Below are positions 53,871 through 54,536 of a DNA stretch of 64,000 nt, in pieces. Both the position numbers and the translations under genes were made by a program. The DNA is from Harriotta raleighana. Taxonomy: Eukaryota. Location: the NCBI GenBank assembly GCA_050575255.1, contig JBNZDD010013721.1:10000983-10064982 (forward strand), in the 5' to 3' direction. Within the stretch, counting starts at the first letter, position 1. Each line of letters begins with the position of its first letter. The notes under the pieces were generated by a model that saw only the letters and a list, made by a program, of their open reading frames with translations, had not been told where the DNA came from and made no database searches.

Positions 53871-54536
53871 ATTTGCACTTTAGAGTGTGAAGGGGTGGAA
53901 CTGTCCGCCAGAGAGTGGGAAAAATGTGTGAAAGCTCTTCACGCGTACAAGCTTGACATCATGGGCATCGATGACGAAGCTTTCACTGCCCCAAACGCTG
54001 AAGAAAAGGAAGGGGAGATTGAGGAGGCGCTGCTTGGAAAACACTACAGTAATCGTTTGAAGCCCTATGAGAACTTCCTGAAGAAGCTGGACAAGAGTGG
54101 CTTCTATGCCAATGCACTGGCTCAGCACGATGCTAACGACAAACGAGAGGGAACCCTCCAAAAGTACTGGGAGTATCTGAAAGCTTTGGGAGAAAGAGAT
54201 GTCCCCACGTTGGAAAAAGGCTTGCGGGAACTTACTGACGCCACGGAGAGCCTGTCAGGAGAAAATGGTGACAGCCCCGAAGAGGCAAAGCGCTACGCAG
54301 GGTTCTTCACGAAAGGCCTCGGCTACAAGAGAACCACAGAGCCGGGCGATGGGGAAAATCAGGACGTGGAGGAACTTCAAAAGAGATACGGAGGATTCAT
54401 GCGAAGAGTCGGCAGGCCACGGTTCAAATGGGACAACCAAAAGAGGTACGGTGGCTTTCTGAGGCGTCATTTCAGAGTGTCAGTCAGATCAGACGACGAT
54501 GCCAATTCCTACTCTGAAGAGGTTTCCGACCTATAG
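53871..54536 (+). CDS. PDYN: Prodynorphin coding exon 2 (neoendorphin-slot peptide, dynorphin A, dynorphin B/leumorphin); total protein 262 aa
   Basis: Acceptor ttcctcag ending 53870. ICTLECEG...W..C completes the six-Cys motif. Contains KR-YGGFMRRVGRPRFKWDNQ-KR-YGGFLRRHFRVSV-R-SDDD..., with a 29-aa leumorphin-length C-terminus. Adjacent to STK35 as in other vertebrates. Confidence 0.97.
   Translation: MCTLECEGVELSAREWEKCVKALHAYKLDIMGIDDEAFTAPNAEEKEGEIEEALLGKHYSNRLKPYENFLKKLDKSGFYANALAQHDANDKREGTLQKYWEYLKALGERDVPTLEKGLRELTDATESLSGENGDSPEEAKRYAGFFTKGLGYKRTTEPGDGENQDVEELQKRYGGFMRRVGRPRFKWDNQKRYGGFLRRHFRVSVRSDDDANSYSEEVSDL

Follow-up and report, generated by a model that had tools for sequence, protein, structure and literature searches.

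Closest described opioid precursors

The opioid family is described as the outcome of two genome doublings and one local duplication (PMC2865548), and within it proenkephalin (PENK) and prodynorphin (PDYN) are traced to the 2R event and to a 'proto-enkephalin/dynorphin' gene (PMC3622036). The described precursor nearest to the PDYN gene analysed here, which lies in a 64,000-nt stretch of Harriotta raleighana DNA (the window), is the prodynorphin of C. milii (XP_007909909.1). It has an identical 18-residue peptide in the dynorphin A slot, an identical dynorphin B and, as in the window, has lost both upstream opioid cores; in either gene only two intact cores, dynorphin A and B, are kept. The alpha-neoendorphin slot differs: in C. 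milii it is preceded by Glu-Arg and has Thr5, whereas in the window it is preceded by Lys-Arg, has Ala2 and Phe5 and is one residue longer. This differing damage suggests either relaxed selection in chimaeras or that a non-opioid 11-mer is still released in the window species. The prodynorphin of Heterodontus portusjacksoni (ADO84690.1) likewise has 18 residues, Met5, Gly9-Arg10-Pro11 and a KWDNQ end, but it has Ile8, Tyr13 and better preserved upstream cores, and its predicted amide is the Ile8 analogue of metorphamide rather than metorphamide itself.

Two further jawed-vertebrate peptides are comparable. The BAM-18/metorphamide (adrenorphin) slot of mammalian PENK shares residues 1–11, the length of 18 and the Lys-Arg flanks before another core, but belongs to a different paralogue, and its C-terminal half is acidic/aromatic (EWWMDYQ) where that of the window is basic (RFKWDNQ). 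Bony-vertebrate dynorphin A(1–17) occupies the orthologous slot and has the Arg-Pro site, a K/R-W-D-N-Q end and mostly Met5, as in the window; unlike the window it is without Gly9 (0 of 100 among the matches listed), and its 1–8 product is therefore not amidable through Gly. Among jawless vertebrates, lamprey 'proenkephalin-A/B-like' proteins (P0279 cluster; XP_061418511.1, XP_032810694) share residues 1–11, a W-x-N-Q end and a dynorphin-B-like next slot, although their peptide has 19 residues instead of 18, and the hagfish proenkephalin-like protein AVN89834.1 has Met5-R-R-V-Gly9 in 18 residues, as in the window, with Gly10 instead of Arg10.

A two-exon prodynorphin gene

The PDYN gene of the window would be spliced from two forward-strand coding exons into a 262-aa precursor, with an AG acceptor before 53871. 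The first coding exon (52591..52713), located by homology to the N terminus of C. milii PDYN, carries the ATG, a hydrophobic leader that, on inspection and from homology, is a likely signal peptide, and the first three Cys; a phase-0 GT donor follows at 52714. The single coding-region intron (52714..53870, 1157 bp) follows the pattern of opioid precursors (PMC2865548). It contains a high-copy repeat (53374–53770) with read depth in the thousands and, just inside its 5′ end, a 156-bp tandem duplication (52734–53050) with N near the junction, possibly an assembly artefact. Raw DNA reads on 52400–55000 are dominated by the repeat, and exon depth is ~0–3 per run. The main coding exon (53871..54536) is an open frame to a TAG stop; searched alone it matches PF01160 with E = 0.00072, below the curated cut-off, and another search gives a score of 29.8 bits, over the cut-off. 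A candidate polyadenylation signal, AATAAA, lies at 54841..54846.

Along the main exon, alignment locates relics of two upstream opioid cores, KPYENFLKK (54060..54086; alignment A1) and QKYWEYLK (54159..54182), the first of which is intact in many sharks and rays. Sequence and homologues then place a degenerate alpha-neoendorphin slot, YAGFFTKGLGY (54294..54326), between intact Lys-Arg pairs, covered by contigs of four samples without a listed difference. The dynorphin A slot follows and, by sequence and alignment, dynorphin B (54447–54485) with a leumorphin-like C-terminal extension (54447..54533).

Judged from its sequence, the gene is an intact PDYN orthologue. First, the 12 best protein matches are to proenkephalin-B of cartilaginous fishes, the top one from C. 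milii at 79% identity over the main exon; one unnamed protein among the 12 clusters with skate proteins. Second, a maximum-likelihood tree of 41 precursors separates PDYN from PENK with support of 100/100 and places the window gene inside PDYN, with that of C. milii as its sister (100/99), so that the source is likely a chimaera other than C. milii. The grouping is unchanged in a quick tree from which the dynorphin A slot was cut out, and support for the PDYN grouping is 95/97 once cyclostomes and PNOC are added. Third, the precursor has two intact Y/F-G-G-F cores flanked by dibasic sites, as in the opioid prepropeptide family, and the PDYN-type tandem of dynorphin A, Lys-Arg and dynorphin B/leumorphin at its C terminus, with no further core. 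One PDYN character is lacking: the alpha-neoendorphin slot, though present, has Ala2 and Phe5 instead of an intact core. The core is likewise missing or damaged in PDYNs annotated from C. milii, Narcine and birds, so not every member of the PDYN family has it. Neither the C-terminal heptapeptide core nor the tree grouping of a seven-core PENK is found.

Tail to tail with PDYN lie the 3′ exons of a HELZ2-like helicase/RNB gene (61356–63983, reverse strand, continuing in L030 and L031), with matches to OB_HELZ2, RNB and AAA_11/12; a PDB search with the helicase exon gave 0 matches. On the reverse strand, 246–677 holds a reverse-transcriptase fragment (PF00078) and 60424–60840 a fragment that looks LINE-like by eye. 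The Pfam scan took in 60 of the 163 window open reading frames of ≥75 aa, and further exons may have been missed.

The same genome holds its own PENK, with seven Met cores, on another contig (L021:1391–2080, reverse strand; G000:C13722:5540890–5541579). Its BAM-18 slot is YGGFMRRVGKPDWRLDYQ, with Gly-Lys-Pro, and equals the 18-mer of PDYN at only 10 of the first 11 residues, the difference being Lys10 for Arg10. A PNOC-like main exon (L006:1360–2022, reverse strand) and a POMC-like main exon (L007:1150–1599, forward strand) are also present; at the PNOC-like locus the nociceptin slot starts with Tyr, has Met5 and is 23 residues long, and the second core is degenerate. Two matches to KR-YGGF, at G000:C13723 and C13721:4818162, lie in frames of 21 and 7 codons, respectively, and were dismissed as chance.

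The dynorphin A slot

Within a 248-codon open frame, positions 54387..54440 of the forward strand encode YGGFMRRVGRPRFKWDNQ, the 18-residue dynorphin A slot, with Lys-Arg on both sides (54381–54386 and 54441–54446). Its start continues Met5-Arg-Arg-Val8-Gly9-Arg10-Pro11, and the codons for Gly9-Arg10-Pro11 (54411..54419) are a predicted amide donor and single-Arg site; Y-G-G-F-M-R-R-V followed by Gly-Arg-Pro is the sequence of a metorphamide precursor. The first-pass annotation had described 18 residues with Met5, a BAM-18-like start over residues 1–11 and the KWDNQ end of dynorphin A, and this description holds against Table 2 of PMC4246669, in which residues 1–11 equal mammalian BAM-18 and the last five equal mammalian dynorphin A.

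In contigs of four other samples the slot shows no listed difference, with coverage running to 54436 in X1, to 54438 in X2 and over the whole slot in X3 and X4; the four come from one study, and the source sample is possibly among them. Together with the identical C. milii peptide, these contigs reject sequencing error as the source of the 18-mer. Chance origin is rejected by the setting, a precursor with a hydrophobic leader, six conserved Cys and 79% identity to C. milii. The only exon difference listed among the four-sample contigs is A>G at 54195, in contigs of 3 of the 4 samples, which would turn an Arg of the spacer region into Gly.

Predicted processing and receptor activity

In prohormone processing, carboxypeptidase trims the basic residue left by cleavage, and cleavage before Pro is unusual. 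PC2 reportedly cleaves prodynorphin at single basic residues (a finding ascribed to Day et al. in 1998). In the window precursor, cuts at the two Lys-Arg pairs would free the 18-mer. There is roughly an even chance that a second cut at the single Arg10, trimming of the Arg and Gly-dependent amidation would then give YGGFMRRV-NH2, so that, by analogy with PENK, chimaera PDYN would release metorphamide and the PDYN of sharks and rays its Ile8 analogue. Gly is required for amidation (PMC10548835). For this species the calculated monoisotopic masses are 2269.144 for the 18-mer, 983.512 for amidated 1–8, 1041.518 for Gly-extended 1–9, 1089.536 for PRFKWDNQ, the remainder specific to PDYN, and 1091.504 for PDWRLDYQ, its PENK counterpart; the amidated 8-mer itself would be identical from either gene. 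Metorphamide and dynorphin A(1–8) both end at residue 8, before (Gly)-Arg-Pro (PMC4246669, Table 2), and the same single-Arg site is therefore apparently used in both mammalian precursors.

The Arg6-Arg7 pair could give Met-enkephalin instead. A reading along these lines, just short of an even bet, is that Gly9 never serves as an amide donor and has been maintained because the intact 18-mer needs it for its activity or shape, with the 18-mer, and perhaps Met-enkephalin, being released. The near-invariance of the 18-mer over its whole length suggests selection on the intact peptide, and in two hagfish precursors the site reads Gly-Gly-Pro, so that position 10 is not basic. Against this, the same Val-Gly-Arg-Pro context gives metorphamide from mammalian PENK, and the PDYN site that is without Gly gives dynorphin A(1–8) (PMC4246669).

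Whichever form is released, human-receptor data bear on its selectivity. Adrenorphin has EC50 values of 41.6 nM at MOR and 43.5 nM at KOR, dynorphin A prefers kappa (12.7 versus about 1500 nM), and changing Met5 to Leu moves adrenorphin towards KOR (PMC7305236). Because of these data the chimaera peptides are predicted to be less kappa-selective, the 18-mer and the amidated 8-mer both acting, by analogy, as mixed mu/kappa agonists.

At the same site the PENKs of cartilaginous fishes differ. Where chondrichthyan PDYNs have Gly-Arg-Pro, their PENKs have Gly-Lys-Pro, in 10 of 10 seen (that of the same genome, C. milii, six sharks and rays, and two more), and in those of sharks and rays the slot has Phe8 and is four residues shorter (14 residues). 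By comparison, 106 of the 120 PENKs examined fit the slot pattern, with Arg10 in 104 of these 106; among the 14 outside the pattern are those of the six sharks and rays and two from acipenseriforms, which also have Lys10. As a rule of thumb, single-basic cleavage needs Arg. If so, given the Lys10 of PENK, cartilaginous fishes would obtain the amidated octapeptide from PDYN. We regard it as a tentative and rather unlikely extension that roles are reversed in this group, PDYN being the main source of the amidated octapeptide and the PENK site having been lost by the Arg10-to-Lys change, with the kappa-selective, non-amidated dynorphin A(1–8) appearing only after the deletion of Gly9 in bony vertebrates.

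Distribution of Gly9 and ancestry of the slot

The first search listed 120 matches, 112 PDYNs, almost all non-mammalian, and 8 PENKs. Met5, which the first-pass annotation had pointed out, is present in 102 of the 112 PDYNs among the matches listed and is thus the ordinary state. Gly9, among the same matches, is present in 12/12 chondrichthyan PDYNs and in 0/100 others: C. milii has the identical 18-mer, and 11/11 shark and ray PDYNs have Gly9 with Ile8 and Tyr13, peptides of the chimaera type and of the shark/ray type differing at positions 8 and 13 alone. The shark form also occurs in H. portusjacksoni prodynorphin ADO84690.1 and in two named skate proteins. Over all fetched proteins with the dynorphin A plus dynorphin B arrangement, a pattern that leaves out cyclostome proteins, 13 have Gly9 (window included) and 127 are without it. 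In alignment A2, Gly9 is invariant over 25/25 rows (23 PENKs and 2 chondrichthyan PDYNs). Of the retrieved chondrichthyan PDYNs, those of the window and C. milii alone carry Val8, the shark and ray ones having Ile8; outside this group, Val8 is present in the PDYN of Polypterus, sturgeon, paddlefish and a turtle. The PENK slot of lungfish ends in DNQ.

A profile search over 1.84 billion representatives gave 127 matches, of which ten, chosen by slot sequence, were looked up; 7 of these 10 are from lamprey or hagfish and, with cluster members, comprise 15 proteins. Met5 and Gly9 are present in 15/15 of these lamprey and hagfish precursors found with the slot, Arg10-Pro11 in 13/15 and Val8 in 14/15 (the other having Leu8). 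One lamprey cluster, of 8 sequences from 4 species, reads YGGFMRRVGRPHKASWANQ, followed by Lys-Arg and a dynorphin-B-like core; it shares its first 11 residues with the window 18-mer and has the W-x-N-Q end. In two hagfish proteins the slot has 18 residues and ends in WGDQ. On this sequence comparison, a PENK-like start and a dynorphin-like end are already together in jawless vertebrates.

The lamprey and hagfish clusters are P0279, P0291, P0297, P0329, P0268, P0325 and P0326. In lampreys there are four or more distinct enkephalin/dynorphin-like precursors, most of which databases name loosely or not at all; in hagfish, the P0291 type has both a dynorphin-B-like slot and, at its end, a PENK-like core.

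On a 33-row tree built with slot residues 6–12 masked, Gly9 takes 1 change, on the bony-vertebrate PDYN branch (29 rows scored, unrooted count). The cyclostome genes are long-branched in this tree and form an open fork relative to PENK and PDYN, with long-branch warnings; they are taken as an outgroup on the strength of the 2R model (PMC3622036), not of the tree, and the direction of the Gly9 change is drawn from PENK and cyclostomes both having Gly. Because the cyclostome precursors with the slot have Gly9 and the lamprey family joins both ends, a single loss of Gly9 explains the pattern. Most likely the start of the slot has the form that it had in the ancestor common to PENK and PDYN, a form which cartilaginous fishes would have kept and from which bony-vertebrate PDYN would have been shortened by one codon. 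We consider it very probable, from these sequences, that the dynorphin A slot keeps the form that preceded the PENK/PDYN duplication and that Gly9 was lost in bony-vertebrate PDYN.

The cyclostome outgroup and the single change on the tree thus support two earlier proposals, that the slot preserves the state before PENK and PDYN diverged and that dynorphin A is homologous with the BAM-18 slot. The two outcomes that the first-pass annotation had named as counterevidence did not arise, since the gene groups with PDYN rather than PENK and Gly9 is pan-chondrichthyan rather than a recent lineage-specific insertion. Its term 'hybrid' does not stand in the sense of a chimera: the peptide is an ordinary chondrichthyan dynorphin A, with no synonymous trace of conversion, and no exchange is needed, since a PENK-like start and a dynorphin-like end already occur together in the lamprey slot.

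An ancient conversion, in which PENK restored Gly9 in the cartilaginous-fish stem after PDYN had lost it, is improbable. It predicts the same distribution in jawed vertebrates, and synonymous sites, by now saturated (32 of the 75 same-residue codons identical between PDYN and the PENK of the same genome, 30.1 expected at saturation), cannot speak on a conversion older than the chimaera–shark split. The codon excess from slot position −5 to 11 (9 of 14 codons identical versus 23 of 61 elsewhere) is weak and non-significant, at Fisher P = 0.08 without scan correction. A best-window scan gives P = 0.26–0.46, with the best windows just before and in the slot; the run from position −2 to 7, where 7 of 9 codons equal those of PENK, is not significant after scanning and stops before Val8 and Gly9, and fourfold sites are identical at 2/5 in the tract versus 5/17 outside. 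Such a conversion needs a loss and a regain where one loss suffices, must predate the Arg10-to-Lys change common to the 10/10 chondrichthyan PENKs seen, and has to contend with the PENK-like start and dynorphin-like end of the lamprey slot.

A recent, chimaera-specific conversion or insertion that made the slot is highly improbable. Val8 is common to PDYN and PENK in both the window's genome and C. milii, whereas shark and ray PDYNs have Ile8; yet Val8 is also found in the PDYN of the four bony vertebrates named above and in 14/15 cyclostome precursors, and for Gly9 the idea is refuted by its presence in 11/11 shark and ray PDYNs among the matches listed. The short recent conversion from PENK that had been raised earlier as an alternative is rejected by the saturated synonymous sites, by synonymous differences from the PENK of the same genome in the Val8 (GTC/GTT) and Gly9 (GGC/GGT) codons, by the different residue 10, and by a DNA search of that genome with the slot region, which gave 2 matches, itself and a PENK patch of only 75% identity over 91 bases. 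That the window gene is instead a divergent second PENK, an idea to which only the equality of residues 1–11 with mammalian BAM-18 lends anything, is barely conceivable and was rejected, as trees with and without the slot put it in PDYN, its precursor includes a dynorphin B slot and does not end in a seventh core, and the seven-core PENK sits on another contig of the same genome.

Prior description and significance

The slot is the ordinary, published dynorphin A of cartilaginous fishes and is already known. Komorowski et al. reportedly noted in 2012 that shark dynorphin A shares with proenkephalin position E motifs absent from other gnathostomes, and ADO84690.1 is presumably the H. portusjacksoni cDNA of that study. 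A check of published chondrichthyan prodynorphins, as the first-pass annotation had suggested, found the exact 18-mer in RefSeq XP_007909909.1 (C. milii) and in print, as XM_007911718 in Supplementary Figure 2 of PMC10280075, section 3.2 of which does not discuss the glycine. A full-text search for fragments of the peptide found no paper, a blank that means little because the peptide stands in that supplement. A literature search turned up no paper dealing with the site for amidation in shark PDYN, with Lys10 in PENK or with the cyclostome comparison, in a field where much of the relevant literature is subscription-only.

Homology of dynorphin A and BAM-18 is itself an established idea, expressed in the 'proto-enkephalin/dynorphin' gene (PMC3622036). 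The slot illustrates clearly how a single ancestral peptide gave rise to both dynorphin A and BAM-18/metorphamide, and it assigns the loss of one glycine codon to the bony-vertebrate stem. Two modest points are possibly new. One is the use of lamprey and hagfish sequences to polarise Gly9; the other is the reciprocal Arg/Lys pattern, from which it can be predicted whether cartilaginous fishes obtain the amidated octapeptide from PDYN or from PENK. If true, the swap of roles between PDYN and PENK would be a case in which a single processing site underwent reciprocal subfunctionalisation following the 2R duplication.
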